NCBI GenBank assembly: GCA_963847445.1
Contig: CAWJZV010000027.1
Span: 32,001 to 96,000 of the forward strand
From: an uncultured delta proteobacterium
GTDB lineage: Bacteria > Desulfobacterota > Binatia > UBA9968
Direction: 5' to 3'
Length of the DNA: 64,000 nucleotides
The notes below the pieces were generated by a model, which was not told where the DNA came from, ran no database searches, and saw nothing but the letters and a program-made list of their open reading frames with translations. Position numbers and translations under genes: made by a program. This document shows, piece after piece, positions 1,862 to 60,829 of the stretch (its first letter is position 1; every line of letters begins with the position of its first letter).

Positions 1862-1889
1862 GGCAAAGCGCGCTAGAGATGAATCTGTA

Positions 1890-2094
1890 ACAAGCAGTTT
1901 AGCGATCGCTTCCGGCCAGAGACTAAGGATCGTTCCACTTTCGATTCACGTTACGCGTTCACTCAGTGGCTCATGCTTCGACGACTTTCGGATCGACGTC
2001 AACACTGGCAATCAGACGTTCAATCAATCGTGCTCTCTCAGTTGGTGAAAGCTGCATCGCTTCGGCTGCAATCGTTTTAAATTGATGAAGACAT
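1890..2094 (-). pseudogene. Degraded addiction-module antitoxin (TIGR02574/Unstab_antitox-like)
   Basis: GGAGG RBS + ATG, then ..IAAEAMQLSPTERARLIERLIASVDVDPKVVEA*ATE..IESG..EAIAKL with stops and shifts. Confidence 0.6.
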
Positions 2095-2232
2095 GCAGAC
2101 CTCCAATCCAGACAATACAGCGGGTAGACTGCCATATCGACAAATTGGCTTCAAACCCGTGATTTGGTTCGGTCGAAAAGTTTGACTTCTTACGTCGACC
2201 TGCGGTAACTCTGGGCGCGATACGGAGGAAGC

Positions 2233-3213: not shown

Positions 3214-3219
3214 AAGACT

Positions 3220-3254
3220 CGTTCAAATCGTTCCAGCAGTTCAAAACGTTCAAG
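3220..3254. repeat. GTTCAA short-period intergenic array
   Basis: Repeated GTTC(A/C)A units; same family at 4294, 11004, 18376, 19019, 26926, 31613, 32329. Confidence 0.7.
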
Positions 3255-3271
3255 TCGTCTTGGGAGGAAAT

Positions 3272-4270: not shown

Positions 4271-4581
4271 GCGCGGCGCTTTTGCGCCACGCGGTTCAAG
4301 GGTTCAACGTTCAAGGTTCAACGTGGGCTCCCATCACAGCCTTCCACCGGCGGACGGTGAGGCTAGAAGTCCTTCGTTGTGAATTGTTCCGTTAGATTTT
4401 GCGTCCTTTGCATTGCTATCTGTGAACATTTACGCGGCGTGCGCAATATTTCGCAGCCTGGAGCGTCTCGGATTCGGACAATCCTCGCGCCAAGGTCGCA
4501 AAGTTGGAAATCTATTTTTCTCTTCCTTCGCGCCCTTTGCGTCTTTGAGACCTTCCGAGTTTCGATTGCGACTCTGTCGCG

Positions 4582-4765
4582 CTAGTGTCCTGGTCCATAA
4601 ATACGTTTACTAAACGCTCTGTACTTCCCCCTTTGAAAAAGGGGGATCGAGGGGGATTTGAATCTATTGCGCATACGTAAATCCCCCCTTCCCCCTTTTT
4701 CAAAGGGGGGATCATTCTCGTCAATGCTTGGTCATATTCATCGAACTTCTGGGTCAGGACACTAG
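4582..4765. mobile_element. MITE-like element with CTAG ends, ~24-bp terminal inverted repeats and an internal palindrome
   Basis: Left CTAGTGTCCTGGTCCATAAATACG versus reverse complement of right end CTAGTGTCCTGACCCAGAAGTTCG; internal CCCCTTTGAAAAAGGGGG..CCCCCTTTTTCAAAGGGG. Confidence 0.7.
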
Positions 4766-4784
4766 GTTCTTTGCGGCTAAATCT

Positions 4785-5765
4785 CTATTTGTACAATTCC
4801 TTCAGTAACCCGCTTTTTTCCAGCCGATCGAGGAATCGCAGGTCGACGAACTGTTCTGGTTTGGCGTTTTTCGCCGCGGGAACCGTTCGCGCGACATCGT
4901 CCAATGCGTTTTGCATACCCTGCATGTTGATGTAGGGAGCGCGTTCGAGGACTTTAGTCATGTAAAAGTCATAGGCGCGATTTAGTATCTCCGCGTCATT
5001 AATCATCGTGTATTTCGCCAATGTTTTGATTGTGCCGTCCCGATCGATGCGCGCGCGCTGCATGGCGCGCACGTAGGCGCGCATGAAGCGATCGATCATG
5101 TCCGGTTTTCTGCGGATCAGCTCGCCCGGCACGGCCATTGATGGATTGGGATAGGCGAGATCCAATTCCGTGATGCTGAAGACTTCCTTGAAACCCATTT
5201 TCTCGGAAAGAAACTGCGTCGGCGGCGAAACCACCGAGGCTTCGACCGCGCCTGACTTCAATGCGCCAAACATGTTCGACATGGTGCCTAACTGCATGAG
5301 GATCACGTCTTTGCTTGGATCCATGTTGACTTTTCTCAGCGCGGCGCGGGCGGCGATGTCGGCGCTCGAACCGAAACGGCTGACGGCGATCCGTTTGCCG
5401 CGCAGATCTTCGAGGTTCTTGACCTCCGGTTTGGCGTGAATCGAGAAGATCAATTTGTTGACGTTGTTGCCGATGACTTTCATATCGGCGCCGCTCAATG
5501 ACGCGGCCATCACCGGGCCGCCGCCGAGGGACGCGATGTCGACATCGCCGGCGACCAAGACCTGGGCGAGTTGAGTAGCGCTGGGAATGAAGATGATCTG
5601 ATCTTCCAGTCCCTCCTTGGCGAAGAATCCGGCGTCGCGGGCAACCCAGATTCCCGTGTAGGCCGCGCTGATCGAGCTGTAGGCGATGCGCACGCGGTCA
5701 GCGGATTGAACCGTTGAACTGAATAGCAGAACGTACAGTATGGCGATACTCGCGAGACGTTTCAT
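4785..5765 (-). CDS. NitT/TauT ABC substrate-binding protein
   Basis: Signal peptide MKRLASIAIL..; WVARDAGFFAKEGL; LRGKRIAVSRFGSS; AKPEQFVD C-terminus. Confidence 0.9.
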   Translation of the reverse strand: MKRLASIAILYVLLFSSTVQSADRVRIAYSSISAAYTGIWVARDAGFFAKEGLEDQIIFIPSATQLAQVLVAGDVDIASLGGGPVMAASLSGADMKVIGNNVNKLIFSIHAKPEVKNLEDLRGKRIAVSRFGSSADIAARAALRKVNMDPSKDVILMQLGTMSNMFGALKSGAVEASVVSPPTQFLSEKMGFKEVFSITELDLAYPNPSMAVPGELIRRKPDMIDRFMRAYVRAMQRARIDRDGTIKTLAKYTMINDAEILNRAYDFYMTKVLERAPYINMQGMQNALDDVARTVPAAKNAKPEQFVDLRFLDRLEKSGLLKELYK

Positions 5766-5900
5766 TGGACTCCTCCGGCGCGCGCTGAGCTTGGGTGAAT
5801 CTACGACGGCCGGTTGGGCAAGATCAAGTATAAGATGCCATGGACCGCGACAAGAGTTCTGTGATATGGAGCGGTCATCCATGGTTTGAAATGGCCGGGT

Positions 5901-6899
5901 ATGCCGATGATGCTTGTCTCAAAATGTTTGTCCCTTGCGTTGATTTCTGCTCTGGCGGTAATGCTATTGCCGAGCGCCGGCCGGACGCAGATGAAGGCGC
6001 GGGTGGCGTGGACTTCGTTCGCCAGTAACATGAGCGGCACTTGGGTGGCGCAGGAAGAAGGGTTGTTTAAGAAGAACGGCCTTGAAGTCGAGCTGGTGCA
6101 TATCCCGTCGACCTCGCGGGCGATTCAAGTGATGCTCGCCGGCGAGTTGCATTACTCCTACATGGACGGCCGCAATTCGGTCACGGCGGCGCTCAAGGGC
6201 ACGGACGTGACGATCATCGCCGGCGTTGCCAACCGTTTGGTGTTTTCCTTCATGGCGCGCCCGGAGATCAAGAGCTTTGCTGAGATGAAAGGGCGAAAAA
6301 TCGGCATCACGCGGCTGGGCTCGTCGACCCATAGCGTGACGCTTTGGGTCATGAACAACGCCGGCATCAAGCCGGAAGAGTATCAGATGTTACAGTTGGT
6401 CGACGTGCCGAATATCTTCACCGCGATGGTCGCCGGCCAGGTCGATGCCGGCGCGCTGTCGCCGCCGACCAATTTCCGCGCCCGTAAAGCCGGCTTGAGC
6501 GAGTTGATGGACGTGACCAAGGACGGCCCCGAGTACGTATCAGTGGCTATCGGTTCGACCCGCTCGTTCATCAAGGCCAATGAAGAGATGACGCGCCGTT
6601 TCATCCGCGGCTACAGCGAAGGCGTGCAGTTTTTGAAGGCGAACAAAGCCGCCGGCATCCGCGCGATTCAAAAGTACGCGCGCATCAAAGATCCGGAGAT
6701 TCTCGAAGCGACCTACGGCGAGGCGCGCGCTTATATCGAGACGACCCCGTACGTGACGCGCAGGGGGATGGAGACGATCATCGGCGAGTTGCTGCCCACC
6801 GAGCCCAAGGCCAAGACGGCAAAGCCGGAGGATTTTCTCGACACGCGCTTTGTCGCGCAGTTGGAGAAGGAAGGGTTTTACAAAGCGGCGGCGAAGTGA
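5901..6899 (+). CDS. NitT/TauT ABC substrate-binding protein
   Basis: WVAQEEGLFKKNGLEVEL; KGRKIGITRLGSST; start uncertain (5901/5907/5910). Confidence 0.9.
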   Translation: MPMMLVSKCLSLALISALAVMLLPSAGRTQMKARVAWTSFASNMSGTWVAQEEGLFKKNGLEVELVHIPSTSRAIQVMLAGELHYSYMDGRNSVTAALKGTDVTIIAGVANRLVFSFMARPEIKSFAEMKGRKIGITRLGSSTHSVTLWVMNNAGIKPEEYQMLQLVDVPNIFTAMVAGQVDAGALSPPTNFRARKAGLSELMDVTKDGPEYVSVAIGSTRSFIKANEEMTRRFIRGYSEGVQFLKANKAAGIRAIQKYARIKDPEILEATYGEARAYIETTPYVTRRGMETIIGELLPTEPKAKTAKPEDFLDTRFVAQLEKEGFYKAAAK

Positions 6900-7033
6900 A
6901 GAGTTTAAGACGATCCCTCACTGGCGTTCGGGATGACGATTCCGACGCTCTATGAACTACGCTAGCTGTGTCATTTCGAGCGCAGCGAGAAATCTATCTA
7001 GGCCGAGACCCTATTCGAACAAAGGAGCGCATC

Positions 7034-7861
7034 ATGCCCAATGTAAAATTACCCACGGGTGTCGATTTCTATTATGAAAGCCACGGCCACGGAGAGCCGC
7101 TGATCTTCGTGCCGTCGACGGCTTATTCCGGCGAGGTGTGGAAGCCTTGGCAGATGCCGCTGGCGAAGTCTCTGCAATTGATTTTCCACGATCCGCGCGG
7201 CTGTGGCCGGTCGGTGCCGACGCAATCTGTTTACACCATCGAGCAAATGGCCTTGGACATCGTCGCGATGATGGATCATTTGAAAATGCCCGCGGCCCAT
7301 TTCATCGGCCACTCCATGGGCGGGCGCATCGCATTGTCGCTGGCGCAAAACTTTCCCGGCAAGGTAAAAAGTTTGATTATGGCGGCAAGCGGTTCGGGTA
7401 CCGCGGGCCGGGCCGGTTCGGATTGCGTGCCGGGTTTGCCGCACCGCTTGGTATACGACATGGTCGAGATGGGCTTCGAGAAATTCATTTACGATGAGAT
7501 CGTCGATTCGGATACATTTTTCACCAAAGATTTTCGTGACCGGCATCGCGACCAGGTCGAAGCGTTTTTCAAAGTCGCCTGGGCGACCCACGCCAAGCTC
7601 GATCCGTTCATTCATCTATGCATCGCGCGCCACAACTTCGAAGGAACCCATCGCTTGGGCGATGTCCAGGCACCGACGTTGGTGCTGATCGGCGAGGCCG
7701 ATACGGTGGGCAGCAATCATATCGCGCAAGCCAGAGTATTGTTGGAACGCATCCCCGGCGCCGAGATGAAAGTGCTCAAGGGCCAATCCCATGGTTTTTT
7801 CTGGCAGGCGCCGGAGGAGACTAATGCGGTCATTCTTGAATGGGTGAAGAAGTGGACCTAG
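7034..7861 (+). CDS. Alpha/beta hydrolase
   Basis: GHSMGG nucleophile elbow, DPRGCGRS, C-terminal His (QSHG); RBS AAGGAG. Confidence 0.92.
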   Translation: MPNVKLPTGVDFYYESHGHGEPLIFVPSTAYSGEVWKPWQMPLAKSLQLIFHDPRGCGRSVPTQSVYTIEQMALDIVAMMDHLKMPAAHFIGHSMGGRIALSLAQNFPGKVKSLIMAASGSGTAGRAGSDCVPGLPHRLVYDMVEMGFEKFIYDEIVDSDTFFTKDFRDRHRDQVEAFFKVAWATHAKLDPFIHLCIARHNFEGTHRLGDVQAPTLVLIGEADTVGSNHIAQARVLLERIPGAEMKVLKGQSHGFFWQAPEETNAVILEWVKKWT

Positions 7862-8079
7862 TGCAGTGCCTCTTAAATGAAGGCACTTATTCATCGATCA
7901 ACCAGGCGCACAGCGGGTAGGCACCGAAGAAGAGCCGGGCGACCCATGGGAAATTGGTTTGCACCCCGAAGAACTCGAAGAGCACGAAGTTGGGAGATTT
8001 GGTCATCCCAACGCTTCGTGTCCTTGGTGGTGAGTTACTCCCCCCGATAAACTGGCAACCGCTTTAGACACTCCACTAG
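7858..8079. mobile_element. MITE-like element bounded by CTAG with imperfect terminal inverted repeats
   Basis: Left CTAGTGCAGTGCCT versus reverse complement of right CTAGTGGAGTGTCT; left CTAG contains the hydrolase stop codon; a related end occurs inverted at ~21770-21797. Confidence 0.55.
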
Positions 8080-8160
8080 TCAATCGGTAATTTCTTTCGT
8101 TGGGCTCTCAATGAATTCGCTGGCTCGAAATTTGACCGTCCGATATATGGATTTCTTCAG

Positions 8161-8940
8161 TTGAGAGCCCGATCGATGCCACCGAAACATGTAAAACTAT
8201 CGATCTGCCGGGTTCGGGCAACGGCGTTTGGTCTTGGGGTTGGATTGGGCCTTTGGGGCTTTATCGGCAGCTGTTGGTGGAATCTCGTGGTCATGGGGAG
8301 GTTGTCTTGTCTTGACGCAAAACCGGATTTTTCGAGCATCTATACCGGAGCAAAACTGATGGCGAGCGGCGCATCATCCTTATACGATCTGAAGAGCCAA
8401 TTAGCCGTACAACAACCCCTTTATCTGGGGCAGGGCGATTGGGTGCTGCCTTTCATGTACCCGCCGTTTTTTGCATGGATGTTAACCCCTCTAGCTTGGT
8501 TGTCCTATCCGACGGCTTATTTCGTTATGACAGTCGTCAATTTGGTCTTGCTGGTCGGCGGCCGGACGGCCCTGGTCGAAATTCTAGGACTTCGCGCGGA
8601 TCAATCGCTACTGCTTGTACTTGTCCGTGTTATGTAACTTTGGGGTATCCTATTGTCTACTAGAGGGACAAACCTCTATCTTGGTGTTTTTCCTGTTAGT
8701 GCTCTTCGTAACTTTTACCTGGATGAACAGGATATTGCCGGCGGTCTTTGGGCGGCCTTATTATCTCTCAAACCGCAGCTGCTTCTAATGCCGGTTGTGG
8801 TTTTGATGAGACAACGACGCTGGCGGGCCGTCTTGGTATTCGCGGTGTCGATCTCAATGTTGGGTCTTTTTTCTTTCATGCTGGTCGGTGAACCGGGTGC
8901 CAAGGCTTTCTTTAAGCTTTTGGGTCAAGCGGCTTCAGGA
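8161..8940 (+). pseudogene. Glycosyltransferase family 87 (DUF2029)-like membrane protein fragment
   Basis: DFSSIYTGA..LYD..PFMYPPFFAW, LKPQL, RRWR motifs; split by a stop/shift and truncated at the converging hydrolase; appears lower in GC. Confidence 0.65.
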
Positions 8941-9727
8941 GCCACGCCTCCAATGCGTTGTTGTATTCCGCCGGCTTGGCGGCTTTCATGCCGTGGCCGA
9001 TGTTTTCCCAGAATTCCAAATTGCACCTGCGGCGGCGCGATGCGTTCGAGATAGCTCATCTCCTCGCGCATGATGGCGCCGCCGGCTTTGTGGTCGGCGA
9101 CCAGGATCGTCGTCGGCACGGCGATGCGTTTGAAGTGGTCCTCGAAGCCAAAGGCCCAGTCACGATTGTCGGTAAGCAGCCGGGTGAGCGCGTGGGCGGC
9201 GAAGTGGTGGTTGCGGTAGACCTCCGTGTCTTCGTCAGCCTGTGACAAGCCCTTTTGCTTGGCTTCGGCGCGGATCTCTGCTTCGGGCTTGCTGCGTCTT
9301 GCCAGCGCGTTGGGCAGCGCAGTCATGAAGGCGTGGATCATGCGCCAGTAGACCGGATCTTCCAGGAAAGCGCGGGAGATCAATCCGGCGAGTCGGAGGC
9401 GAGGATGGTGCCGATGTTGCCGCCCCAGGAGTGGCCGACGTAGGCGGGTCTTTTTAGTTCCAGATTCTGGATCAGTTGGCGAATGTCCTCGGCAAAGTCG
9501 CGCAGGCGGTAACCGGTCAGCGGCTTGTCCGACTCGCCATGGCCGCGCAGATCGGGAGCGATGATGCGATAGCGCTCGTGAAAATGTTCCGCGACCGCGC
9601 TCCAGCTCGCGGAGAAATTCGTCCAGCCGTGGACCAGCAGTAGTTCGGGTTTGCCGCGCTCGCCCCATTCTAAATAATGCAGTTTGATGCCTTGGACTTC
9701 GGTGAATTTGTGTTGTGGGTTGCTCAT
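8912..9727 (-). CDS. Alpha/beta hydrolase (frameshifted)
   Basis: LVHGW, DLRGHGESD, GHSWGG; C-terminus EFNNALEAWLLKPLDPKA* in another frame. Confidence 0.8.
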
Positions 9728-9929
9728 TGAATCTGTTCCGTCTAGAGTTTGGAGTCAGCGTATGGTGATTCCGATGCTTCTAGTCGTTTAGTGATTATCT
9801 CACTTAGTAGAGACGTCAACTGTCCAGACCGTAGACGCCATTTGACGCTCGATTCGACCCACTGTTGACAGTCGTTGGAGCAGCGGTGATAGCCAGGGTT
9901 ACGAAAGAACTTCTTCCGCGGAGGTAACT

Positions 9930-10990
9930 GTGAAAAAGTTATTCTCGTTGTTCGTGCTCCTGTTCTTCCTCGCGTGCGCGGGCTTGGCTGGCCGAACCTG
10001 GGCCGCTGCGGCGGACGACAAGGCGGTGGCGGATTTCTACCGCGGCAAGACGGTGAAAATTGTCGTCGGTTTTTCCGCGGGCGGCGGCTACGATGCCTAT
10101 TCTCGGGTGATCGGCCGGCATATTCAGAAACATATCCCGGGCAATCCCAGTGTCATCGTCGAAAACATGGCCGGCGCCGGCAGCATTCTTCTGGCCAACC
10201 ATATGTTCAACGTCGCGCCGAAGGATGGCACGGTGATCGGCAACTTCAGCGGCCAGATTATTCTTCGAGCAGCAGTTTGGCAATCCCGCGGTGCAGTACG
10301 ATCTGGCGAAGTTTCGTTTTCTCGGCGTGCCGATCGGCGAGACTTATTTGCTGATGGCGACGAACAAATCCGGCGTCACGAAGTTTGACGAGCTGCTCGG
10401 GGCCAAGTCGAAGCAGCTCACCGTCGGCGGCATCCCTGGCTCGACGGTGGAACAGGGGCCGATGCTGATGCGCGATCTGCTCGGCGCCAACATCAAAGTC
10501 GTCAGCGGCTACAAGGGCACGGCCGACGTCCGGCTGGCCATGGAGAGCGGCGAGATCGACGGCATTCTTCAACAGCTGGGAATCGACCAAGGTGACTTCG
10601 CTGGACCGCGTCAAAAACGGCGACTGGCAAATACTCGCGCAAGTCGGCGATCACCCGATCGCGGCGCTGCCGGTGAAGAACGTGCCGACGATCCCGCAGA
10701 TCGCCAAGACCGAGGAGCAGCGGCAGCTACTGCGTTTCGGCGCGGCCGCGCCCAATCAGTTCGCCAAAGTCTACGTGGTTCCACCAGGGACGCCGCCCGA
10801 CCGCGCCGCGGCCCTCGAAACGGCGTTGACGAGGACTTTCGCCGACAAAGAATTTCTCGCCGAAGCCGACAAAGGCAAGCTCGACATCGATCCGGTCTCG
10901 GCGCACACAGGTGCAGAAGATTGGTCAACGACTTTTTCGGCTTGCCGGCCGAGCTCAAAGCAAAGCTGAAAAAGATTCTTGCGACCATAG
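9930..10990 (+). CDS. Bug/TctC-family substrate-binding protein (frameshifted)
   Basis: DFYRGKTV, GGGYDAYSR, ENMAGAG, VSGYKG, PPGTPPDR motifs spread over several frames. Confidence 0.85.
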
Positions 10991-11003
10991 GTCGCAAGAT
11001 CTT

Positions 11004-11120
11004 CGTTCAAGCCGTTCAAGCGGTTCAATCCGTTCAAGACGACTCGGATTTCGCACGTTCCAAGTTCTTAAAACCTCCGAGACGCCTTGAACGGCTTGAA
11101 CCGAGCGTAGCGATTGAACG
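11004..11120. repeat. GTTCAA/TTGAAC inverted short-period array
   Basis: Left arm CGTTCAAGCCGTTCAAGCGGTTCAATCCGTTCAAG, right arm CTTGAACGGCTTGAAC..TTGAACG. Confidence 0.75.
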
Positions 11121-11169
11121 CTTAGCGATACGGCAATTGCGATACAAGGTAACTACGGAGGATTGCAGA

Positions 11170-11934
11170 ATGGGTTTACTGGACGGCAAAGTGGTGGTGG
11201 TGACGGGCGGCGGGCATGGCATCGGCCGCGCCTATTGCATGGGGATCGCGCGCGAAGGCGGCACGGCGGTGGTCGCCGATATCGACGACAAGGCTGCCGA
11301 CGGCGTTGCCAAAGCGATCGCCGACAAGGGCGGCAAAGCACTGGCGACCAAGGTGGACGTGGCCAATTTCGCCAGCTGCCAGGAGATGGCGAAGAAAGCT
11401 CTCGGCAGCTACGGCCAGATCGATGGACTGATCAACAACGCGGCGATCTTCATGAGCGTGCCGGCGGAAAAAGGCAGCTGGCAGGATATCACCGAAGAAG
11501 CCTGGGACCGGATCATGGCGGTCAACGTCAAAGGCTTGTGGCTGTGCAGCCGGGCGGTGGTGCCGGCGATGCAGAAGCGCAAGCAGGGCAGCGTCGTCAA
11601 TATTTCCTCGAACATGGCGTTTAACGGCGGCTTGACGATGATGCACTACGTGACTTCCAAGGCGGCGGTGGTGGGATTCAGCCGTGTGCTCGCGCGGGAG
11701 CTGGGATCGGATAATATTCGCGTGAATACCTTGGCGCCGGCTCGACCATGAGCGAGGACAAAGCGACCGATGACGCGGTGAAGAACTACGAACGCTCGGC
11801 GTCGACGCGCATTCTCAAACGCATCGAGCAGCCGGAGGATCTTGGTTGGGACCGCGCTGTATTTGCTCTCGGATTTGAGCACATTTGTTACCGGGCAGAC
11901 GATTCTGGTCAATGGCGGGGCGGTGTTGCACTAG
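11170..11934 (+). CDS. Short-chain dehydrogenase/reductase (frameshifted near 3' end)
   Basis: TGGGHGIG, NNAA, YxxxK (YVTSK), TGQTILVNGG. Confidence 0.9.
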
Positions 11935-45631: not shown

Positions 45632-46061
45632 GTCCCGGTAGAAGTCCTTGTATTAATCTTAATTTAAATTCCAGCCACGTCGCCTTAACGCTAAGTAGAA
45701 GACGGTTTTATTTATCACTATGGCGATTTTCCGCTAGTATAAGTATTAGACTGCGCCATTGATATTTTGTTCCAAGGAAGACCCCATAGATAATAGATAT
45801 ATTGAGCGGCCTCAGCCGGCGGCGCGACCAAAGCCGGTCGTTGGTGCGCTAGAGCCCGAATTGGACGCTGTCATCCCGAATCCTTCGGCCAAGCTCAGAA
45901 TCGACCCCGTGAGAGGGAATTTACCCGCCCTGAGTCACTATGGTGGCATTATTCGGCTTGACGAGATAACCGGAGGTTCAGTAGAGTCAGCCACTATCTA
46001 GACGGTTCCCGGATTTCCGTTTTGACCTAAAAATTTCTTAACCCAAGGGAGGAGACCAATC

Positions 46062-47175
46062 ATGTTTGTATGTCTATCGCCTGGAGGCCAGTTGCTCACC
46101 AACGGTGAGACGCAGACGGATAAGTTGCTTGTCGGCACGGTGGATGGAATTTTTTCTTTCCAAAAAAATGGCGGCGCCTGGGCGCAGCAAGCGACCATGG
46201 TGCCGGGCAAGCATTTTAGCTCAATCATCTTCGAGCCGACGACCAAGACGCTGTTCGGCGGCACCTACAGCTGCGAGATCTTTGCCAGCAGCGATCTCGG
46301 CAAGAGCTGGGAGCGGCGCGACAAAGGCATCGGCGAGAAGGAAATCTATTCGCTCGCCAGTCAATTAGTTAACGGCAAGCCGCGCATTTATGCGGGTACC
46401 CAGCCGGCGCATCTATATTTCAGCGACGATCTCGGCAAGAGCTGGACCGAGCTGCCCGGTCTGCGCCAGGTGCCGGGTGTCGAGAAATGGACTTTCCCCG
46501 GCGAGCCGCATCTGGCCCACGCCAAGAGCATCACCTTCCATCCGAAAGACCCGAACATCATTTACGTCGCCGTCGAAGTCGGCGGCTTCTTGCGCAGCAC
46601 GGATGGCGGCCAGACCTGGACCACCGTCGATAATATCAACCCCGATGCCCACCGCGTCTTGGTGCCGGCCAACGATCCGACCAAACTCTACGGCACCGCG
46701 CCGACGACCAACTGCGGGCCGGAAACAGCCGCTGGTTTCTGCGTCAGCAGCGACGGTGGCGCGAGCTGGACGAGCATGACGCCACGTGACTTCCGCATCG
46801 GTTATGTCGATCCGTTCTTCGTCCATCCCAAGGATCCAAATCTTTTGTTTGTCGCCGGCGCCAAGACCGGCCCCGGCACCTGGCGCAAGCTCCACACCGC
46901 CGACGCGCGCATCGCGCGCAGCCGCGACGGCGGCAAGACTTGGGACATGCTGAGCCGGCGGCTTGCCGGAGCATATCCGCGCCAACATCGAAGGCATGGC
47001 GATGGATGCGTGGAACGGCGGCTACGCCATCTTCGCCGGGACGACCGACGGCGATGTTTTCTATAGCGACGACGAAGGCGAGCACTGGCAGACGATCGTC
47101 AAAGGCATCGGCGCGGTGTCGAAGTCGCATCACTACGTCAATCTGTCGTTGGACGAACAGGCGGCGCATCACTAA
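46062..47175 (+). CDS. BNR/Asp-box beta-propeller protein (frameshift ~46960)
   Basis: SSDLGKSW, SDDLGKSW, STDGGQTW, SRDGGKTW, SDDEGEHW; RBS GGAGG. Confidence 0.85.
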
Positions 47176-47835: not shown

Positions 47836-50800
47836 ATGGCAACGATTAAGAAAAAAGTTGGGAAGATGGCCAAGGCCAAGCCGCGCTCTGCCGTAGCGAA
47901 GAAAGCCCAGCCTCAAAAAGACCAACTCAACTCAGGATCTACAGCGCGAACTCGCCGATGCGCTTAGCGCGGGAAAACGCCACCAGCGAGATCCTGCGGA
48001 TGATCGCCAAGGCTTCCGGCGATCTTCAGGCCGTGTTAGATGCGCTTGCCCAATGCGCGGCCCGATTGTGCGATGCCAAGGATGCGCAGATTTTTCGCCG
48101 CGAGAACGATCTGATTCACCGTGTAGCTACGTACGGCGATTTGCCCGTCGCGCTCGAACACACGCCCTATAATCGCGAGTCGCCGGCCGGGCGCGCGATG
48201 GTGGATCGGCAGAGGGTTCATATTCGCGATCTTGCTGCCGTGGTCGATAGTGAATTCCCGGTAATCAAAAACTATGCGCGGGCGTATCGGACATCGGACG
48301 ACGCTGGCGGTTCCGTTGCTGCGCGACGGGCTTTCGATCGGCGCGATTCTGATTCGCCGCCTGGAAGTTCGCCCGTTCACGGATGCGCAGATCAAGCTGC
48401 TCGAAACCTTCGCCGACCAGGCCGTCATCGCCATCGAGAATGCCCGGCTGTTCCAGGAACGTGAGGCCGGCAACCGCGATCTCGCCGCGCTGCACGACGT
48501 GACGACCGCCGCCAGCCGGTCCTTGGAGATCAAGCCGGTCTTGGACGAAGTGATTAGGAAGATAACGGAGATTTTTGCTTTTGATTCGATGAGCATTTTT
48601 CTCTTCGACCCGCAGAGAGAATATCTAAATAGAGTGGCTTCCTTCGCTCCTCATGAAGAAGCACCTTCCCCTAGAGGCTTTCGCCGTGGCCAGGGACTCA
48701 CGGGCAGAGTGGCGGAGACCGGCGAACCGATCATTTTTGAGAACGTCAAGACCGATCCTCGTTATCAGGAACTGAGTCAAACCAAAGCCACCCAACAGCG
48801 CGATCACTGTTTCTTCGCGCTTTTTCCGATCAAAGCCAAAGAACGGTTTTTGGGGACAATCACCTGCCTGGGCAAAGAGCCGAGAAAGCTGATTGCCGAA
48901 GAAGTCCGGCTGATCAACTCGATGTGCGATCAGATCGGCGTCGCCGTCGAGAACATCAATCTTTTTGAACAGGTCAAAACCAAGACGGCCGAGTTGGAAA
49001 GCAGCAACTCGGAACTGCGCGAGGCACTGGCCCAACAAACCGCCACCAGTGAAGTGTTGCGGGTGATCGCCGCCTCTCCGACCGACGTCCAGCCGGTGTT
49101 CGAGACGATTGCGCACAGCGCGGCGCAGTTGTGTGAAGCCTTCGATGTCCTGGTCCTGCAGGTCGACGGCGAAGTATTGCGCCTGGTGGCTCATCACGGG
49201 GAAATTGCTGCAGGTGACATCCCGCTTCATCGCGGGACAGTAAGCGGTCGGACCGTAATCGAACGCCGCGTGATCCATCTCAGCGACCCGCAGAAGGAAA
49301 CAGAGGAGTTTCCCGAAGGCAGCGCCCTTGCGCGAGAATGGGGCCAGCGCAGCACGCTCAGTGTGCCTTTGCTGAAAGAAGACGTCGCGATCGGCGTCAT
49401 TCAGGCTCGTCGTGACGAGATCCGTCCCTTTTCCGACCAACAGATCAACTTGCTTCAAACCTTCGCGCATCAAGCCGTGATCGCCATCGAGAACGTGCGG
49501 CTGTTCAAGGAACTGGAGGCCCGGAACCGCGATTTAACGGAAGCGCTGGAGCAGCAGACCGCGACGAGCGAAGTGCTGCGGGTGATTGCGTCCTCGCCGA
49601 CTGAGTTGCAGCCGGTGCTCGACACGCTGATCGCGAACGCTGTGCGACTTTCCGGCGCGACCAGGGGGCATGTACGGCAATTCGACGGTGATTTCTATCG
49701 CGCGGTGGCCCACGCCGGCGAGACGTCCGGACATGATCGCCACTCTTCGCGCCAATCCCCTTCCAGCGAGTCCGGACATTCCTGCCGCTCGGGCGCTTCT
49801 CGGCGGCAAACCGGTTCATATCCTCGACGTTCAATCGGAGAGCGGAGTGCATCTCAATCTGGCGCGGCAAATGGGTACGCGAACCATGCTCGCCGTGCCG
49901 CTGCTGCGCGAAGGAACGTCTATCGGTAGTCTCACCATCTGGCGCGATGTTGTCGAAGCATTTACTGAGCGGCAGATCGAGCTGGTGAAAACTTTCGCTG
50001 ACCAGGCAGTGATTGCGATTGAGAATGTTCGGCTGTTCAAAGAACTAGCATCGCGCAACCGCGATCTCACCGAGGCCTTAGAGCAGCAGACCGCTACTAG
50101 CGAAGTACTCAAGGTGATCAGCCGCTCGACCTTCGACCTCGAACCGGTGCTGCAAACTTTGCTGGAAAACGCGTCGCGGCTTTGCGGCGCGGATCATGGA
50201 TCGATCCATAGAGTCGACGGCGAGATGCTGCCAATCATTGCCGCCTATCGCCATCCCGAAGAGCTGACCAGGCTTGTCGAGCAAAATCCGCCGCGGGTTA
50301 CGCGCGACACGGTAACCGGTCGCGTCGTGATCGAGTGTCGTTCGATCCACATCCCGGATTTGATGGCCGATCCAGACTATCATTACGCTGTAACTTCCTT
50401 GGGTCTCAGGACCGTGCTCGGCGTGCCGCTGCTGCGCGAAGGCGCGCCGGTCGGCGTCATTATCATCTTCAAGACTGAGGTCGAACCGTTCACTGACAAA
50501 CAGATCGAGCTCGTCACCACCTTCGCCGATCAGGCGGTGATCGCCATCGAGAACACGCGCTTGCTCAAAGAATTGCAAGACCGCAACGATCAATTGACCG
50601 AGAGCTTGGAACAGCAGACGGCGACGAGCGAGATTCTGCGCGTCATCGCCAGCTCGCCGACGGATATCCAGCCGGTGCTGGATGTGGTAGCGGCGAATGC
50701 CGCTCGGCTCTGCGAGGCTAACGACGCTCAGATTCTGCGGATCGAAGGAGAGGTCTTCACCGCGTCGGCCTCATATGGAACACGCCAAACTGCGGAAACT

Positions 50801-53800
50801 CGACCCGTCACACGGGAAATCGTCGCCGGCCGGGCGGTTATCGACCGGCAGACGGTTCATGTCCACGACATTCGTGACGCGCAGGACCAAGGCTACCCAG
50901 GGGCCGCTGCGTTCGGTCTCAACGAGAGTCGCACGCTTCTCGCAGTGCCACTGCTTCGCGAGGGCATTTCCATTGGCGCTATCCTGATTCGACGGTTCAA
51001 GTCCGCCCGTTTTCAGACAAGCAGATCAAGCTGCTCGAAACCTTCGCCGACCAGGCCGTCATCGCCATCGAGAACGTGCGGCTTGTTCAAGGAACTCGGC
51101 GAGCGCAACGCGGAATTGCGCGAGGCGCTGGAGCATCAGACGGCGACGGCCGAGGTGCTCGGCATCATCAGCCGCTCGCCGACCGACGTGCAGCCGGTGC
51201 TCGACGCCATCGTCGAGAGCGCGGCACGGGTTTGCGGGATCGATGACGTGGTGCTGCGACTCCGCGAGGGGAACGCTATGGTTCCGCGGGCTCATTTTGG
51301 TCCCATACCCATCGCCCGCGTCGAGATCAGTATCGATGAGCCACAGTTTCGCTGGATGCGCGAGCATGGCACGCTCCACATTCCCGACGCCCGCGCGCAG
51401 AACGATTTCCCAATGTTAGGTTCCGCCGGCAGCTGGCGCACCTTCTTGGCCGTTCCCCTTCGTCAGCAGGGGGAACTCATTGGAGTACTGATCGCACGTC
51501 GCACCGAGGTGCGCCCCTTCACCCCGGCGCAGATCAAGCTGCTCGAAACCTTCGCCGACCAGGCGGTGATCGCCATCGAGAACGTGCGGCTGTTCCAAGA
51601 ACTCAAGGAATCGTTGGAGCAGCAGACGGCGACGAGTGAAATCTTGGGCGTCATCGCCAGCTCGCCGACGGATATCCAGCCGGTGCTGGACACCGTTGCC
51701 GAGAACGCGGCGCGAGTTTGTGGACGCCGATGACGCCGTCATTCGGCTGGTCGAGGGCGATGTTCTGCGGCGCAGTGGCCCATTACGGACCCGTGCCGCG
51801 AAGTTGCCGGAGCGACTCGGCCCATCGACCGCGGACTCAGTCGCCGGTCGAGCCATTGTCGACCGCGCAGACGATCCACATCCACGACTTGCATGCCGAG
51901 TCGCAGACAGATTTCCCGGACGTCATGACGCAGCTCACGAGCAGGGTGTTCGGACACTGCGTTGGCAGTGCCGCTGCTGCGCGAAGGCGTCGCCATTGGC
52001 GTGATTCACATTCGCCGCACGGAGGTCCGCCCTTTCACCGACAAGCAGATCACGCTGCTCGAAACCTTCGCCGATCAGGCGGTCATCGCCATCGAGAACG
52101 TGCGGCTTGTTCAAGGAACTCGGCGAGCGCAACGCGGAATTGCGCGAGGCGCTGGAGCATCAGACGGCGACGGCCGAGGTGCTCGGCATCATCAGCCGCT
52201 CGCCGACCGACGTGCAGCCGGTGCTCGACGCCATCGTCGAGAGCGCCGCCCGGGTTTGCGGGATCGATGACGTGGTGCTGCGACTCCGCGAGGGGAACGC
52301 TATGGTTCCGCGGGCTCATTTTGGTCCCATACCCATCGGCCGCGTCGAGATCAGTATTGATGAGCCACAGTTTCGCTGGATGCGCGAGCATGGCACGCTC
52401 CACATTCCCGACGCCCGCGCGCAGAACGATTTCCCAACGTTGGGTTCCCTCGGCGGCTTGCGCACCTTCTTAGTCGTTCCCCTTCGTCAGCAGGGGGAAC
52501 TCATTGGAGTACTGAACGCACGTCGCACCGAGGTGCGCCCCTTCACCCCGGCGCAGATCAAACTGCTTGAAACCTTCGCCGATCAGGCGGTGATCGCCAT
52601 CGAGAATGTGCGGCTGTTCCAAGAACTCAAGGAGTCGCTGGAGCAGCAGACTGCGACGAGTGAAATCCTGGGCGTCATCGCCAGCTCGCCGACGGATATC
52701 CAGCCGGTGCTGGACACGATCGCCGCAAGCGCCGCGCGAATATGCGGTGCGGACGATGCCCTGATCCGGCTTGTCGAAGGTAATGTACTTCGCTTGAAAG
52801 CCCACCAGGGTTCTATCCCATCTTTCTCACAAGCGCATGGAGCCGAGTCCGATTCTCTCGATCGCGGTCGCGAATGGATACCCGGCCGAGCGGTGCTCGA
52901 TCGAGAGACGATTCATATCCATGATATAACCGCAGGTAGAAACGGAGTTTCCGGAGACGGCCGTGAGAGCGAGGCGGGCAGGGGTTCGCACGGCACTCGC
53001 TACACCGCTACTTCGCGAAGGTGCTGCCATCGGTGTGATTTTCATTCGTCGCACCGAAGTCAATCCATTCACCGATAAACAAATCTGCTTTGCTTAAAAC
53101 CTTCGCCGACCAAGCGGTAATCGCCATCGAGAACGTGCGGCTTGTTCCGGGAACTCGGCGAGCGCAACGCGGAATTGCGCGAGGCACTGGAGCATCAGAC
53201 GGCAACGGCCGAGGTGCTCGGCATCATCAGCCGCTCGCCGACCGACGTGCAGCCGGTGCTCGACGCCATCGTCGAGAGCGCCGCGCGGGTTTGTGGGATC
53301 GATGACGTGGTGCTGCGGCTGCGCGAGGGGGACATGATGACGGTGCGGGCTCATTTCGGTCCCATACCCATCCGGCCGCGCCGAGATCAGTGTCGATGAA
53401 CCACAGTACCGCTGGATCCACGAGCATGGCACGCTTCATATTCCCGACGTCCGCGCGCAGAACGATTTCCCAAGGTTGGGTTCCGTCGGGAATCGCACCT
53501 ATCTTGGCCGTTCCCCTTCGCCAGCAGGGGGAACTCATTGGAGTCGCTGAGCGCTCGTCGCATCGATGTCCGCCCCTTCACCCCGGCGCAGATCAAATTG
53601 CTCGAGACCTTCGCCGACCAAGCGGTGATCGCCATCGAGAACGTGCGGCTGTTCAACGAACTCAAGGAGTCGCTGGAGCAGCAGACGGCGACGAGTAAGA
53701 TTCTTGGCGTCATCGCCAGCTCGCCGACGGACATTCAGCCGGTGTTGGACACTGTGGCGGAAAATGCCGCGCGGCTGTGTGACGCCAACGATGCGGTGAT

Positions 53801-56800
53801 CTTCCGGGTATTCGGTGATAATCATCAGCGGGTAGCGAAGTATGGTTCCATGCCGGCGCCGGATTTCCCAGTTCCGATCAGTCGCGGCGTGCCCGGCGGC
53901 CGGGCGATCGTCGATCGTCAGACGGTGCACATCCACGATCTTGCAGCTGGAGATCGACACGGAGTACCCGGCGATCAAACCGATCCAAAAAGAGATTGGC
54001 CAACGGACCGTGCTTGCGACGCCTTTGCTGCGAGAAGGCGTCGCCATCGGCGCGATCGTCATTCGCCGGATAGATGTCCGCCCGTTTACCGATAAGCAGA
54101 TAAAACTTCTTGAGACCTTCGCCGCTCAGGCGGTGATCGCCATCGAGAACGTGCGGCTGTTCAAGGAACTCGGCGAGCGCAACGCGGAATTGCGCGAGGC
54201 GCTGGAGCATCAGACGGCGACGGCCGAGGTGCTCGGCATCATCAGCCGCTCGCCGACGGACGTGCAGCCGGTGCTCGACGCCATCGTCGAGAGCGCCGCG
54301 CGGGTTTGTGGGATCGATGACGTGGTGCTGCGACTCCGCGAGGGGAACAGTGATGGTTCCGCGGGCTCATTTTGGTTCCATACCCATTGGCCGCGTCGAG
54401 ATCAGTATTGATGAGCCACAGTATCGCTGGATGCGCGAGCACGGCACGCTCCACGTTCCCGACGTCCGCGCGCAGAACGATTTTCCAACGTTAGGTGCCG
54501 TCAGCGGCTGGCGCACCTTCTTGGGCGTTCCCCTTCGTCAGCAGGGGGAACTCATTGGAATGCTGGGCGCACGTCGCACCGAGGTGCGCCCCTTCACCCC
54601 GGCGCAGATCAAGCTGCTCGAAACCTTCGCCGACCAGGCGGTGATCGCCATCGAGAACGTGCGGCTGTTCAAAGAATTGCAGGAACGCAACCGTGATCTC
54701 ACCGAGGCGTTGGAGCAGCAGACCGCGACGAGTGAGATTCTGAGTGTCATCGCCAGCTCGCCGACCGACATTCAGCCGGTGTTGGATGTCGTTGCCGAAA
54801 GTGCGGCACGGCTGTGTGAAGCGGCCGATGCTAACATTTACCGTCATTGATGGCGCTGGCTATCGGCTCGTGGCCTCACACGGATCTATGCCTATCGCCC
54901 GACCGCGAGTAAACCTAGACCTCTCATCCGGGGTCTGCCTCCAGGCAGAGCTATGATCGATCGAGCGGTCGTACACGTCGATGACATGTTCAGCCCGGAG
55001 GCGCAGGCGGAATTTCCCGAAGGCCGGACGTTCACACAAGCCGTCGGTCTTCGTACGATGTTAGTTGCACCTTTGCTCCGCGAGGGGGTTGCAATCGGGG
55101 CCATCTTTATTCGCCGCACCGAAGTCCGCCCGTTCACCGACAAGCAGATCGCGCTTCTCAAAACCTTCGCCGACCAGGCCGTGATCGCCATCGAGAACGT
55201 GCGGCTGTTCAAGGAATTGGGAGATCGCAACCGCCAACTTACTGAGGCTCTGGAGCAGCAGACCGCGACGAGCGAGATTCTGCGCGTTATCGCCAGCTCG
55301 CCGACGGATATTCAACCGGTGCTGAGGTGGTGGCCGAAAATGCCGCGCGGCTTTGTGATTCAAGCGACGCGCAGATCTTTCGCGTCGAGGGTGACATGGT
55401 GCGCAAGGTCGCGAGTTACGGCGTCACGGCCCCCGTCCTCGGAGTCGGCGAAACCCGGCCGATCAGCCGCGGCTCTGGGAGTGGACGCGCTATCCTCGAC
55501 CGGCAGCCCGTCCACATCCACGACAGCCTAGACGTGCTCGACGAAGACTATGCGGACAATAGGCGTGCCCATGAGCGCCTGGGTATTCGGACGGTACTGG
55601 CGGTTCCGCTTCTGCGCGAGGGCGTTGCGATTGGGGCCATCGCGATCCGGCGCACCGAGTTGCGGCCGTTCACCGAAGAACAGATTGCCCTCCTCAAGAC
55701 CTTCGCCGACCAAGCCGTTATTGCAATCGAAAATGTCCGGCTCTTCCAAGAACTCACCGAGTCGTTGGAACAGCAGACCGCGACGAGCCAGATCCTTGGC
55801 GTCATCGCCAGCTCGCCGACGGACATTCAGCCGGTGCTCAGATGTGGTAGCCGAGAATGCTGCGCGGCTGTGCGATGCAACGGATGCGTCATTCAACGTG
55901 TCGAGGGTGAATTGGCTTCGCGCCGTGGCATCCTTATGGGTCGATGCCGGCTGACGCAGGTCTGGAGGAGAGGTGCTCATTACCCCTGGCCATGCGCCCT
56001 CGGACGGGCGATCATCGACCGGCAGACGATTCATGTTCATGATCTCGTCGCGGAGGTCGAAACTGAGTTTCCTGAAAGCAGGGTCGCACCAAAAGCGTTT
56101 AGCGGGTCTCGGACGCTGCTTTGCGACGCCATTGCTTCGCGAGGGGGTATCTCTCGGTTCGATCATGATTCGCCGCACCGAAGTGCGCCCGTTTACCGAT
56201 AAACAGATCAAACTTCTTGAGACATTCGCCAGCCAAGCCGTCATCGCCATCGAAAACGTCCGGCTGTTCAACGAGCTCGATACCCGCAACCGCCAGCTTA
56301 CCGAAGCTCTGGAGCAGCAGACCGCGACGAGCGAGATTCTGCGCGTGATCGCCAGCTCGCCGACGGATATCCAGCCGGTGCTGGATGTGGTGGCCGAGAA
56401 TGCCGCGCGGCTGTGCGACGCGACTGATGCTGACGATCTTCCGGGTAGATGGCGACATCCTTCAGTCGGTGTCGCAGTACGGCGTGCCAGATTCTCGATC
56501 AGATCGACCGCACCGATCAGCTCGCGGTATGCCAGCTGGTCGGGCGTGCTTGATCGATCGGCAGACCATTCACATCCACGATGTTTGGCCGATGATGGAA
56601 ACGGAGTTCCGCAGAAGCCAAAGCTGCTCAGCAACGGACTCAAGTACTCGAACCGCTTCTCGGCGACGCCGTTAATCACGAGAAGGTGTTGCCGATTGGT
56701 ACTATCTTGATTCGCCGAACGGAAGTCCGCCCATTCACCGACAAGCAAATCGCTCTACTCAAAACCTTCGCCGACCAGGCCGTGATCGCCATCGAGAACG

Positions 56801-58084
56801 TTCGGCTGTTCCAAGAATTGCAGGAACGCACGCGCGAACTGGTGGAATCGGTCGAGGAATTAAAAGCGCTCGGCGAAGTCGGTCAGGCGGTGAGTTCCAG
56901 CCTCGATCTCGAAACGGTGCTTGAAACTATTGTCGCCCGCGCCGTCGATCTGTCGGGAACCGATTGCGGCGTCATCTATGAATATGACGAGGAAGAGCAA
57001 GAGTTTAATTTGCGCGCCAGCCATCAAGATGGAAACCGAGGCGGTCGAAGGCGCTGAGAGCGGCGCGCATACGGCTGGGCGAAGGGTCGGCGGGTCAGGC
57101 GGCGCGTGACTCGCGCGCCGGTGCAGATCCCGGACACGTTGGATACAGCAGGAGCGTACGGCTTCGCGGATCAGACCACTGCTCACCCGCCTCGGTTACC
57201 GCTCGCTTCTGACGGTGCCGCTGTTGCGCGAGCAGCAAATTATGGGAGGTCTGACGGTCTGGCGGCGGCAGGCCGGCGAGTTCGAGCCGGAAGTGATTAA
57301 CCTGCTGCAAACCTTCGCGACGCAATCGGCTCTGGCGATCCACAACGCGCGGCTGTTCCGCGAGATCGGCGACAAAAACCGCGAGATCGAAGCGGCGAAC
57401 CGGCACAAGTCGGAATTTCTCGCCAACGTGTCGCATGAGCTGCGCACGCCGCTCAACGCCATCATCGGTTTCTCGGAAGTGCTGCTGGAAAAGTACTTCG
57501 GCGAGTTGAACGACAAGCAAAATGAATACGTCGACGACATTCTTTCCTCCGGGCGCCATCTGCTGTCGCTGATCAACGACATCCTCGATCTGTCCAAGGT
57601 CGAGGCTGGACGCATGGAATTGGAGGTGACGACGTTTCACCTGCCGGACGCCATCGACAACGCCCTGTTACTGGTGCGCGAGCGCGCCAGCCGGCACGGC
57701 ATTAAACTCGACCAGGCGATCGACGAGCGCTTGGGCGAGTTCACCGGCGACGAGCGCAAGATCAAGCAGATCCTCGTCAATCTACTGACCAACGCGGTGA
57801 AGTTCACGCCCGAGGGCGGCCAGGTGAAGGTCGAGGCGAGGTTGGGCGACAGCGCGGTGATCCTGTCCGTCGTCGACACCGGCATCGGCATCGCCAAGGA
57901 AGACCAGGAAGCGATCTTCGAAGAATTCCGCCAAGCCAGCGGCAACTACGCGCAGAAGCGCGAAGGCACGGGGCTGGGATTGACGCTGACGAAACGTTTC
58001 GTCGAAATGCACGGCGGCAAAATCTGGGTCGAGAGCGAAGTGGGCAAAGGCAGCACTTTTACATTTACGCTGCCGATCGGATAA
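47836..58084 (+). CDS. Giant sensor histidine kinase: 18 tandem GAF domains + HisKA + HATPase (many indels)
   Basis: 18 [12 protein letters not shown]-type GAF C-terminal helices spaced ~510-550 bp; [30 protein letters not shown]; no transmembrane segment seen. Confidence 0.85.
51091..54680 (+). repeat. Four near-identical ~510-bp GAF modules at ~1.02-1.04-kb period
   Basis: GGAACTCGGCGAGCGCAACGCGGAATTG.. starts at 51091, 52115, 53150, 54165. Confidence 0.92.
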
Positions 58085-58120: not shown

Positions 58121-58565
58121 ATGACGGAAGGACGACGGAGGTAAGAGTTCGAAAGGCGCAAAGCGAAGTTCGATGAAGAGTGCATCGGAACAAGTGTCTT
58201 GGATGCTGCGATTGAGGTGCATCGGGAGCTTGGGCCTGGGTTGCTTGAATCGACGTTTACGAGCAATGTCTTGGCTTATGAACTCGAGACAGCGCGGTAT
58301 TCCGTGTCAATCTTCAAGTGCCGATTCCGATTCGACTATAAAGAAATGACATTCGACGCGGCATACCGAGTCGATCTCGTTGGTGGAGGAAAAGAGTCAT
58401 CGTTGAACTTAAAGTCGTTGATCAGTTACTGCCGAGCTCATAAGAAACAGGTGCAGACCTATTTGCGACTTACCGGATGCAAGCTTGGTTTGCTGATCAA
58501 TTTTGGCGTACGGTCTTGATGAAAGCGTGTCGATGATTCGTGTGGTTAATGGACTCGACGACTGA
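58121..58565 (+). pseudogene. GxxExxY protein (PD-(D/E)xK-like), frameshifted
   Basis: DAAIEVHRELGPGLLES..YE, YRVDL, HKKQVQTYLRLTGCKLGLLINFG, IRVVNGL; start uncertain. Confidence 0.85.
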
Positions 58566-59713: not shown

Positions 59714-60829
59714 ATGAATACACCCGCTAAAATTCTTGTCGTCGACGACACGCCGCGCAATGTGAAGCTGTTGGCCGATTTGCTGGGCGTGAAGGGCTAT
59801 GCGGTGGTGACGGCTGCGTCGGGACGGGAGGCGTTGCTGAAGATCGACGCAGAGCCACCGGATTTAGTTCTTTTAGACGTCGTCATGCCGGAGATGAGCG
59901 GCTATGAAGTTTGCCTGAAGATTCGCGATAATCCGGCGACGGCGATGCTGCCGGTGGTCATGGTCACGGCGCTCGATCCCAGTGTCGAACGGGTGAAAGG
60001 CATCGACGCCGGCGCGGACGATTTTCTCACCAAGCCGATCAATCAATCGGAGCTGCTGGCGCGGGTGAAGTCGCTGCTGCGCGTCAAAGAATTGCATGAC
60101 ATAGTCCAGGTGCAGGCGGCGCAATTGGCTGAGTGGAACAAGACGCTGGAATTGCGCGTTCAGACACAGGTGGAACAACTGGAACGATTGGAACGGCTCA
60201 AACGATTCTTCTCGCCGCAACTCGCCGAATTGATTGTCGCGGGCGGCGCGGACGATCCGCTCAAGACGCACCGGCGCGATGTGACGGTGGTGTTCGTCGA
60301 TCTGCGCGGCTTCACGGGGTTCGCCGAAACCGCCGAGCCCGAGGAAGTGATGGGCGTGCTGCGCGAATATCATGCGGCCATGGGCCAACTGATCATGGAG
60401 CATGAGGGCACGCTCGAGTGTTTCATCGGCGATGGCATGATGGTGATTTTCAACGATCCGGTGCCGGTGCCTAATCCGCAAGAGCGCGCGGTCCGCATGG
60501 CGCTGGCGATGCGCGGGCGCTTCGAGGAACTGTCCCGGGCGTGGAGCAAGCTCGGTTATGACATCGGTATGGGCGTCGGCATCGCTCAGGGTTACGCGAC
60601 CATCGGCGCCATCGGCTTCGAGGGGCGTTGGGACTACGGCTCCATCGGCACGGTTTGTAACCTGGCTTCGCGCCTATGCGGCGAGGCCAAGCCGGGGCAG
60701 ATTTTGCTTCCGCAACGGCTGCTCGCGAGCATCGCCGATCTCGCCGAGGTCGAACCCGTCGGTGAGTTGTCATTGAAGGGTTTTCAGCGCGCGGTTGTTG
60801 CTTACAACGTGCTGGGGCTCAAGGAATAG
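59714..60829 (+). CDS. Response regulator fused to class III adenylate/guanylate cyclase
   Basis: REC (VVDD, LDVVMP, TKP); FVDLRGFT, GDG, NLASRL. Confidence 0.92.
   Translation: MNTPAKILVVDDTPRNVKLLADLLGVKGYAVVTAASGREALLKIDAEPPDLVLLDVVMPEMSGYEVCLKIRDNPATAMLPVVMVTALDPSVERVKGIDAGADDFLTKPINQSELLARVKSLLRVKELHDIVQVQAAQLAEWNKTLELRVQTQVEQLERLERLKRFFSPQLAELIVAGGADDPLKTHRRDVTVVFVDLRGFTGFAETAEPEEVMGVLREYHAAMGQLIMEHEGTLECFIGDGMMVIFNDPVPVPNPQERAVRMALAMRGRFEELSRAWSKLGYDIGMGVGIAQGYATIGAIGFEGRWDYGSIGTVCNLASRLCGEAKPGQILLPQRLLASIADLAEVEPVGELSLKGFQRAVVAYNVLGLKE

Follow-up and report, generated by a model that had tools for sequence, protein, structure and literature searches.

The stretch of DNA analysed here (64,000 nt of contig CAWJZV010000027.1, positions 32,001 to 96,000, from an uncultured delta proteobacterium; hereafter the window) carries on its forward strand a gene (47950 to 58084) for a sensor histidine kinase whose GAF domains number about 18; a unit of two of these occurs four times in tandem. 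An earlier note on this DNA, made from the letters alone, had proposed that the repeated domain is being diversified at particular codons, either by a retroelement or by gene conversion combined with strong selection. The reading we favour, at a probability of about 0.7, is that of a cytoplasmic multi-GAF kinase with two-GAF duplications, in which the copies differ as paralogues ordinarily do at a presumed ligand pocket and the frame breaks are consensus errors of the assembly.

The limits of the gene were drawn from Pfam domains, linker motifs and tblastn of intact relatives. Matches to the three Pfam families compared, GAF (PF01590), GAF_2 (PF13185) and GAF_3 (PF13492), are spread over 12 separate open reading frame (ORF) pieces, and the ORF at 49631-51733 belongs to the GAF family by four stretches that match the GAF profile with 180.9 bits, against a cut-off of 22.4. 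At the C-terminal end of the kinase, the ORF at 57110-58084 contains HisKA (86.4 bits, 1.3e-24) followed by HATPase_c (115.7 bits, 1.9e-33), which is the order that marks a histidine kinase. The linker motif gave 17 matches between 48409 and 57314 with one gap of double length, and we therefore count 18 GAF domains. The source genome (G000) comprises 7.19 Mb in 48 contigs, is rated 91.8% complete and 6.9% contaminated, and has GC fractions of 0.62, 0.44 and 0.70 at the three codon positions.

A repeat search placed the four tandem units, each of about 1 kb, at 51001 to 55090 (forward strand), with starts at 51001, 52025, 53060 and 54075; the four-copy repeat families are spaced at 1024, 1035-1036 and 1015 nt, a period of two GAF domains. 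Each unit consists of a conserved module, its first ~750 nt and 85-97% identical across units, followed by one divergent GAF, which occupies columns 760-1000 of a unit alignment with a mean column identity of 84%. By linker-motif count the module corresponds to GAF 7, 9, 11 and 13 of the 18, and both repeat search and alignment agree with the earlier description of these four as one module alternating with distinct GAFs. Copy 1 (GAF 7; 51086 to 51733, forward strand, as are the others) served as the reference. One frame stays open through it until an extra base near 51724, and a stop follows at 51733; the extra base is evident from a 1-nt gap in every other copy at reference position 639. Copy 2 (GAF 9; 52110 to 52757) is 95.1% identical to copy 1 and has no indel within the module. 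Copy 3 (GAF 11; 53145 to 53796; 88.6% identity) has three 1-nt insertions, at reference positions 226, 358 and 399, and one 3-nt deletion, while copy 4 (GAF 13; 54160 to 54831; 88.7% identity) has an in-frame 21-nt insertion and a 1-nt insertion at about 54349, where contigs from other metagenomes omit one base (54349-54352).

Searched against the source genome, the 648-nt module gave 15 blastn matches of at least 300 nt (four in the window, five at the end of contig C8 and six on contig C9, within 131-143 kb), all inside similar multi-GAF arrays. Contig C8 ends within its array of five module copies (G000:C8:169926-176431), so the true copy number and the arrangement of the arrays in the genome are uncertain.

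A shared set of variable codons

The codon differences to which the earlier note drew attention proved exact: ATG/ACG/AGG/ACG stands in copies 1 to 4 at 51413/52437/53473/54488, coordinates included, and GCC/CTC/GTC/GTC (codon 114), GCC/GTC/GCC/GGC (codon 122), ATC/AAC/AGC/GGC (codon 136) and the TTA/TTG toggles are all as described. For the core of the domain (codons 59-145), its hand count for copy 1 against copy 4, with 14 codons changed nonsynonymously and 4 synonymously, was reproduced. The broader statement that the copies differ mostly by amino-acid-changing substitutions holds within the GAF core but not over the whole module, whose 212 codons include 78 that vary between the copies in the window, 36 of them changing the residue and 42 silent. 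Among 12 close copies from the source genome, third positions account for 80 of the 138 variable columns.

All copies were projected onto copy 1, and amino-acid entropy was compared codon by codon between 13 copies from the source genome and 16 short-read copies from contigs of other genomes (L005, L006, L007, L009, L010, L012, L013, L015 and L018). The two profiles are strongly correlated (Spearman 0.66, p = 1e-27), and 17 of the 36 residue-changing window codons fall within the 25 (of 212) most variable short-read codons, where about 4 would be expected (Fisher p = 8e-10). The hot codons, a set defined from the entropy profiles of the short-read copies, lie in copy 1 between 51263 and 51505 (forward strand) and are, in module numbering, codons 60, 63-65, 67, 76, 77, 87, 88, 91, 103, 105, 110, 111, 113-116, 120, 122, 131, 134, 136 and 140; up to seven residues occur at a single codon among the 13 copies of the source genome. 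In a same-genus genome, four tandem copies lie within one intact ORF of 3057 aa (L082) and show 97 nonsynonymous and 27 synonymous differences at hot codons, compared with 229 and 409 elsewhere, and the genes on L083 and L084 have a similar pattern. By these sequence comparisons the hot codons are a property of the whole family and not of this locus alone. Since the variation is found in short-read copies and in the intact ORF of L082, the differences would not vanish in accurate data.

With the hot codons thus defined on an independent set, the ratio of nonsynonymous to synonymous substitution rates (dN/dS, or omega) among the 12 close copies of the source genome is 1.34 (bootstrap 0.58-3.84) where codons are hot and 0.12 where they are not; for the four window copies the corresponding values are 1.04 (bootstrap 0.44-2.88) and 0.14. 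The short-read copies give an omega of 0.58 at hot codons defined on the source genome's own copies, as against 0.107 elsewhere. Synonymous divergence among the 12 copies is about equal at hot (dS 0.163) and other codons (dS 0.187), which argues that the local mutation rate is not raised; over the scaffold codons 1-58 it is 0.085. The earlier note had suggested judging its proposal by per-column spectra and dN/dS, and here the outcome is divided, with variation focused at shared codons as proposed but omega only about 1. As judged from these substitution patterns, the hot residues are under loose or mildly diversifying selection rather than targeted mutation.

The module was modelled with AlphaFold2 from an alignment of 25 sequences, and the model has the GAF fold, with an antiparallel sheet, flanking helices and long N- and C-terminal helices (predicted local distance difference test score, pLDDT, 88; predicted template modelling score, pTM, 0.82). 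Foldseek returned 448 PDB matches at E <= 0.001 with GAF domains on top (best 6oap_A, E = 4.7e-12, TM 0.82), and the closest PDB match by sequence is the DevS GAF (E = 1e-5). When the hot residues are mapped onto the secondary structure of the model, they are predicted to lie on the beta1-beta2 hairpin (60-67), on the next loop and the helix 86-94 (76, 77, 87, 88 and 91), from strand 3 via helix 109-113 (alpha4) to strand 4 (103-116), and at every other residue of the final two strands (120/122 and 134/136). The idea that the variable residues belong to a ligand pocket is consistent, on the level of secondary structure, with their predicted places on the hairpin, helix, loops and alternate strand positions. 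In a weak profile alignment with the haem-binding GAF of DevS, residue 114 falls opposite the His within the YHPP stretch, which we take to be the haem ligand there. On the model, the hot residues probably line the presumed ligand pocket.

Frame breaks in the kinase gene and elsewhere in the assembly

The kinase gene had been taken to encode one protein, and as assembled it does not: no frame is open across it, and about a dozen breaks interrupt it. Successive linker motifs lie in frames 0,0,1,1,0,1,1,2,1,2,0,1,1,0,1,0,1, which makes 12 net frame changes, no single continuous frame leads from the sensor domains to the kinase, and the proteins of intact relatives align by tblastn onto alternating frames. 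The arrays on C8 and C9 are equally fragmented. Across the 13 module copies of the source genome we counted 21 indel events of lengths not divisible by three, which hit 10 of the 13 copies, plus the extra base in copy 1; many of these indels fall at hot patches. None of the 16 short-read copies is frameshifted, and at the same loops they differ in length only by multiples of three.

Some of the breaks are shared between copies. Comparison of linker sites revealed an extra T in GCGGCTTGTTC, just 5' of the module (51083 to 51084, forward strand), which is also present in unit 2 (about 52107), in unit 3 (about 53142) and at one C8 site, unit 4 being without it. It occurs at 4 of 33 linker sites in the source genome, at 0 of 12 short-read sites and at 0 of 49 sites in other metagenome-assembled genomes (MAGs) with long contigs, and contigs from other metagenomes omit the one at 53142. 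An insertion at module position 189 is common to three copies at two loci.

Genes outside the arrays are broken as well. The uvrA gene (G000:C25:79476-81931) is split over frames into open stretches of 234, 515, 515 and 410 aa with three junctions, among them one with an extra G in TTTCTTGCGCC and one with a surplus T within a T6 run. Breaks also affect two genes for class-I aminoacyl-tRNA synthetases (PF00133; G000:C18:22195-23874 and G000:C7:241448-243298): one lies in pieces of 740, 243 and 402 aa, and the match to the other reads through four TGA and one TAA codons. Upstream of the kinase, a BNR/sortilin-repeat gene recognised by Pfam (46035 to 47172, forward strand) is frameshifted near 46960, such that tblastn places residues 1-310 and 307-379 of an intact 379-aa homologue (L033) in two different frames. 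Same-genus genomes assembled in hundreds of contigs carry the module within ORFs of 1480-3057 aa, while another few-contig genome (G003, 88% complete) is as fragmented as the source genome; few-contig MAGs can be noisier still, one 648-nt copy (L003) containing 14 insertions of one or two bases. In the source genome only 29 stop-to-stop ORFs of at least 1000 aa are present in 7.19 Mb, and the secA profile TIGR00963 found no match there; both observations fit gene fragmentation or incompleteness.

Because uvrA, the synthetase genes and the BNR gene are frameshifted too and the short-read copies are clean, the breaks in the kinase gene are most likely assembly errors, and we consider it very probable that such errors account for most of them. 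That errors account for every single break is a further step, suggested by the relatives and the other genes. The relaxed selection over all codons expected of a pseudogene was not seen, omega being 0.12 at non-hot codons of the source genome and 0.107 in the intact short-read relatives; a scaffold omega of 0.12 argues against a pseudogene old enough to have gathered that many indels. Gene-fragmenting indel errors in long-read genome and metagenome assemblies are described in passages of 10.1101/2021.08.23.457338, PMC12007338 and PMC9262707. The likeness of the present case to such errors is one of pattern, in that single-base indels split genes genome-wide, lie partly in homopolymers and are densest in repeats, although many of the indels here lie outside homopolymers. 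Taken together, the breaks in the kinase gene, its BNR neighbour, uvrA and the synthetase genes mark the assembly as too error-prone for fine claims.

Origin of the copy differences

The module copies appear to share a reticulate history. In a tree of 61 copies, those of the source genome are mixed among copies from the closest MAGs. No single tree accommodates 62% of the site pairs among the 12 close copies (78 informative sites) or 63.5% of those in the short-read set, which we read as frequent short exchanges among many copies. The nearest foreign copies are the same three near-consensus copies, and the identity of hot sites with them is 210/318 (66%), compared with 60% between paralogues. 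A megablast of 44-60 kb against the retrieved loci gave only module-level matches, of at most 92.8% identity over about 700 nt.

Retrohoming in the manner of a diversity-generating retroelement (DGR), with a remote template rewriting the hot codons, was one of the two explanations first offered for these differences. A single codon has the look of it: codon 136 alone appears AAC-derived, its states AAC, ATC, AGC, GGC, TAC and ACC all being obtainable from AAC via its adenines. At codon 114, by contrast, A never stands at position 2 among 29 copies (13 from the source genome and 16 short-read), and A is present in any copy at only 64 of 138 variable columns. In any ordered pair of the 12 copies, at most 28% of mismatches fall at would-be template adenines, the corresponding maximum for thymines being 37.5%. 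The suggested blastn search for a non-coding copy of the module, run on the source genome, turned up only coding array copies, all 15 matches lying within the three coding arrays, and a profile search of the 91.8%-complete genome found no DGR-type reverse transcriptase. The one RVT_1 locus it did find (C45:931-1624) is located at a contig start (L001 = G000:C45:1-3124) and is split over at least three frames; a weak GIIM match that stays below the cut-off (E = 5.7e-4) comes after it. This, the only reverse transcriptase in the genome, resembles a group II intron protein. The ORFs beside it have no Pfam match to Avd, for which no specific profile search was made; the gene 3' of the reverse transcriptase (C45, 2440-3123) has a weak T4-baseplate-like match. 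Lacking a DGR reverse transcriptase, a template copy and an adenine bias, and with the same hot codons varying across many genomes and bins, the proposal is close to refuted, within the limits of a bin that is 92% complete. Even with 8% of this genome missing, and with mobile elements often lost in binning, we regard a remote template as exceedingly improbable.

Gene conversion combined with strong selection on the pocket, the other original explanation, survives in part: the same codons vary across genomes and the proportion of incompatible site pairs is high, but dN/dS at the hot codons is indistinguishable from 1, and relaxed constraint fits equally. In its full form, in which positive selection drives pocket residues apart while conversion shuffles the variants and the array serves as an evolvable sensor repertoire, we consider it possible though rather unlikely. 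Omega values at or above 1 at hot codons against 0.12-0.14 elsewhere argue for it, as do the seven residues reached at one codon, the mosaic of site pairs and the fact that hot sites agree no better with the nearest foreign copy than between paralogues; set against these are omega intervals that reach well below 1, the value of 0.58 in short-read copies, and the confounding of tree-based tests by recombination and assembly chimeras. More doubtful again, and offered only tentatively, is the idea that the two-GAF unit is an evolvable sensor cassette whose scaffold is kept while conversion shuffles pocket residues among dozens of near-identical modules per genome, strung together in giant kinases; if true, this soil-bacterial lineage would possess small-molecule sensors in combinatorial variety, a repertoire replaced faster than the genes themselves. 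The frame breaks themselves might instead mean that the three multi-GAF arrays are real, decaying pseudogenes, their frameshifts spread by duplication and conversion and their hot codons a relic of function. All three loci (C27, C8 and C9) are indeed fragmented, the extra T common to four related units and the insertion at position 189 would suit inheritance, and the density of breaks is above the genome-wide estimate. Frameshifts also affect essential or housekeeping genes elsewhere in this assembly, however; the scaffold is constrained as in intact relatives, which speaks against neutral decay; other few-contig MAGs are noisier still; and the short-read copies are unbroken, with same-genus short-read ORFs reaching 3057 aa. 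We hold decay of the arrays to be quite unlikely.

We therefore return to the inherited divergence of paralogues in a functional kinase. A very large cytoplasmic sensor histidine kinase would have grown via tandem duplication of the two-GAF unit, its scaffold (signalling helix, core strands and linker) being held nearly invariant by purifying selection and by exchange among 13 or more copies, with gene conversion as the presumed homogenising force. About 25 residues around the presumed ligand pocket would be free to differ between copies, and the small molecules sensed probably vary, in kind or in tuning, from copy to copy. The copy differences would then be ordinary inherited paralogue differences that call for no mutagenic retroelement. 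The dozen-odd frame breaks would stem from faulty consensus in an error-prone assembly, repeats being hit hardest; the organism itself most likely has an intact gene.

Several observations weigh against parts of this account. Breaks number about 1.3 per kb in the gene and about 2.6 per kb in the module copies, while a rough genome-wide rate, from a handful of housekeeping genes, is only about 0.3 per kb, and rpoB, rpoC and a 1897-aa UvrA-like ORF are all intact; the excess may come from a consensus of mixed reads of near-identical copies. The extra T is found in four related units and is absent from 29 sites of the same context in the source genome, and as such resembles an inherited change or a copied polishing error more than independent random errors. 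The case for gene conversion is drawn from high incompatibility alone, to which chimeric assembly of repeats could contribute, and a test of the pairwise homoplasy index (PHI) type showed no decay of incompatibility with distance (p = 0.84 for the source genome, 0.08 for the short-read set). Finally, the placement of the hot residues at the pocket is based on secondary structure and one weak profile alignment.

Known systems, relatives and neighbouring genes

Among characterised proteins, GAF histidine kinases of the DevS/DosS type are the closest in kind, with the same domain families in the same order (GAFs, then HisKA, then HATPase_c) and the same GAF fold. They differ in having 1-3 GAFs rather than about 18, and in the kinase described here two-GAF units follow one another in tandem with 85-97% identical DNA and recur at three loci, and a haem-ligand His is not kept at the aligned position, residue 114 being hypervariable. 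Tandem domain families under concerted evolution, in which unequal crossing-over or gene conversion evens out the copies while residues that set specificity diverge, offer a second comparison, sharing near-identical scaffold DNA, few variable codons and high phylogenetic incompatibility, but the PHI test here lacks the decay with distance and the mosaic may be partly an assembly artefact. The likeness to DGRs is superficial, limited to a few codons with many residues, some with a fixed third base; the present locus differs in having no DGR reverse transcriptase, template repeat or adenine specificity, and its target fold is neither C-type lectin nor Ig. On tandem or multiple GAF arrays with gene conversion, the portions of the literature available to our search held nothing pertinent. 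As far as sequence and domain content go, this is an ordinary paralogous domain family within a GAF sensor histidine kinase of unusual length, and it carries a caution, since a pattern of "hypervariable codons" in tandem domains is also how ordinary paralogue divergence looks.

Relatives of the module are widespread. In public genomes at least 556 related stretches were found among 600 candidates, the closest among the matches listed belonging to MAGs labelled uncultured delta proteobacterium, Candidatus Binatia, Syntrophobacteraceae and others, and the related loci retrieved added 48 module copies, each 550 nt or longer. The module is present at E <= 1e-40 in 10 of 12 same-genus genomes, one of the 10 (G005) being unpublished and entering no other result. 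Four unrelated data sets from soil, sediment and permafrost each contain 1765-11399 short contigs that are at least 90% like parts of the window. These results offer a modest lead, namely that uncultured soil and sediment bacteria have kinases of up to 18 or more GAF domains made from one repeated module; the family is abundant in metagenomes, and its variable residues are predicted by the model to cluster where GAF domains usually bind ligands.

The DNA between GAF domains (51044-51187, 51476-51619 and their equivalents) recurs at 90% identity or more in thousands of short contigs of each of these data sets. Among public sequencing runs, none contains half of the window's words, the best share being 0.28 (21 rows, 12 studies), and about one-quarter of the sampled 31-mers of the window are common to 20 runs from 11 studies.

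The BNR/sortilin-repeat gene adjoins multi-GAF kinases in two short-read contigs as well (L033 and L037; 84-86% DNA identity). On the other side of the kinase, Pfam identified a PD-(D/E)XK_3 gene just 3' of it (58145-58519) and, further 3', a gene joining a receiver domain to an adenylate/guanylate cyclase (59714-60829), which could be the output partner of the kinase.

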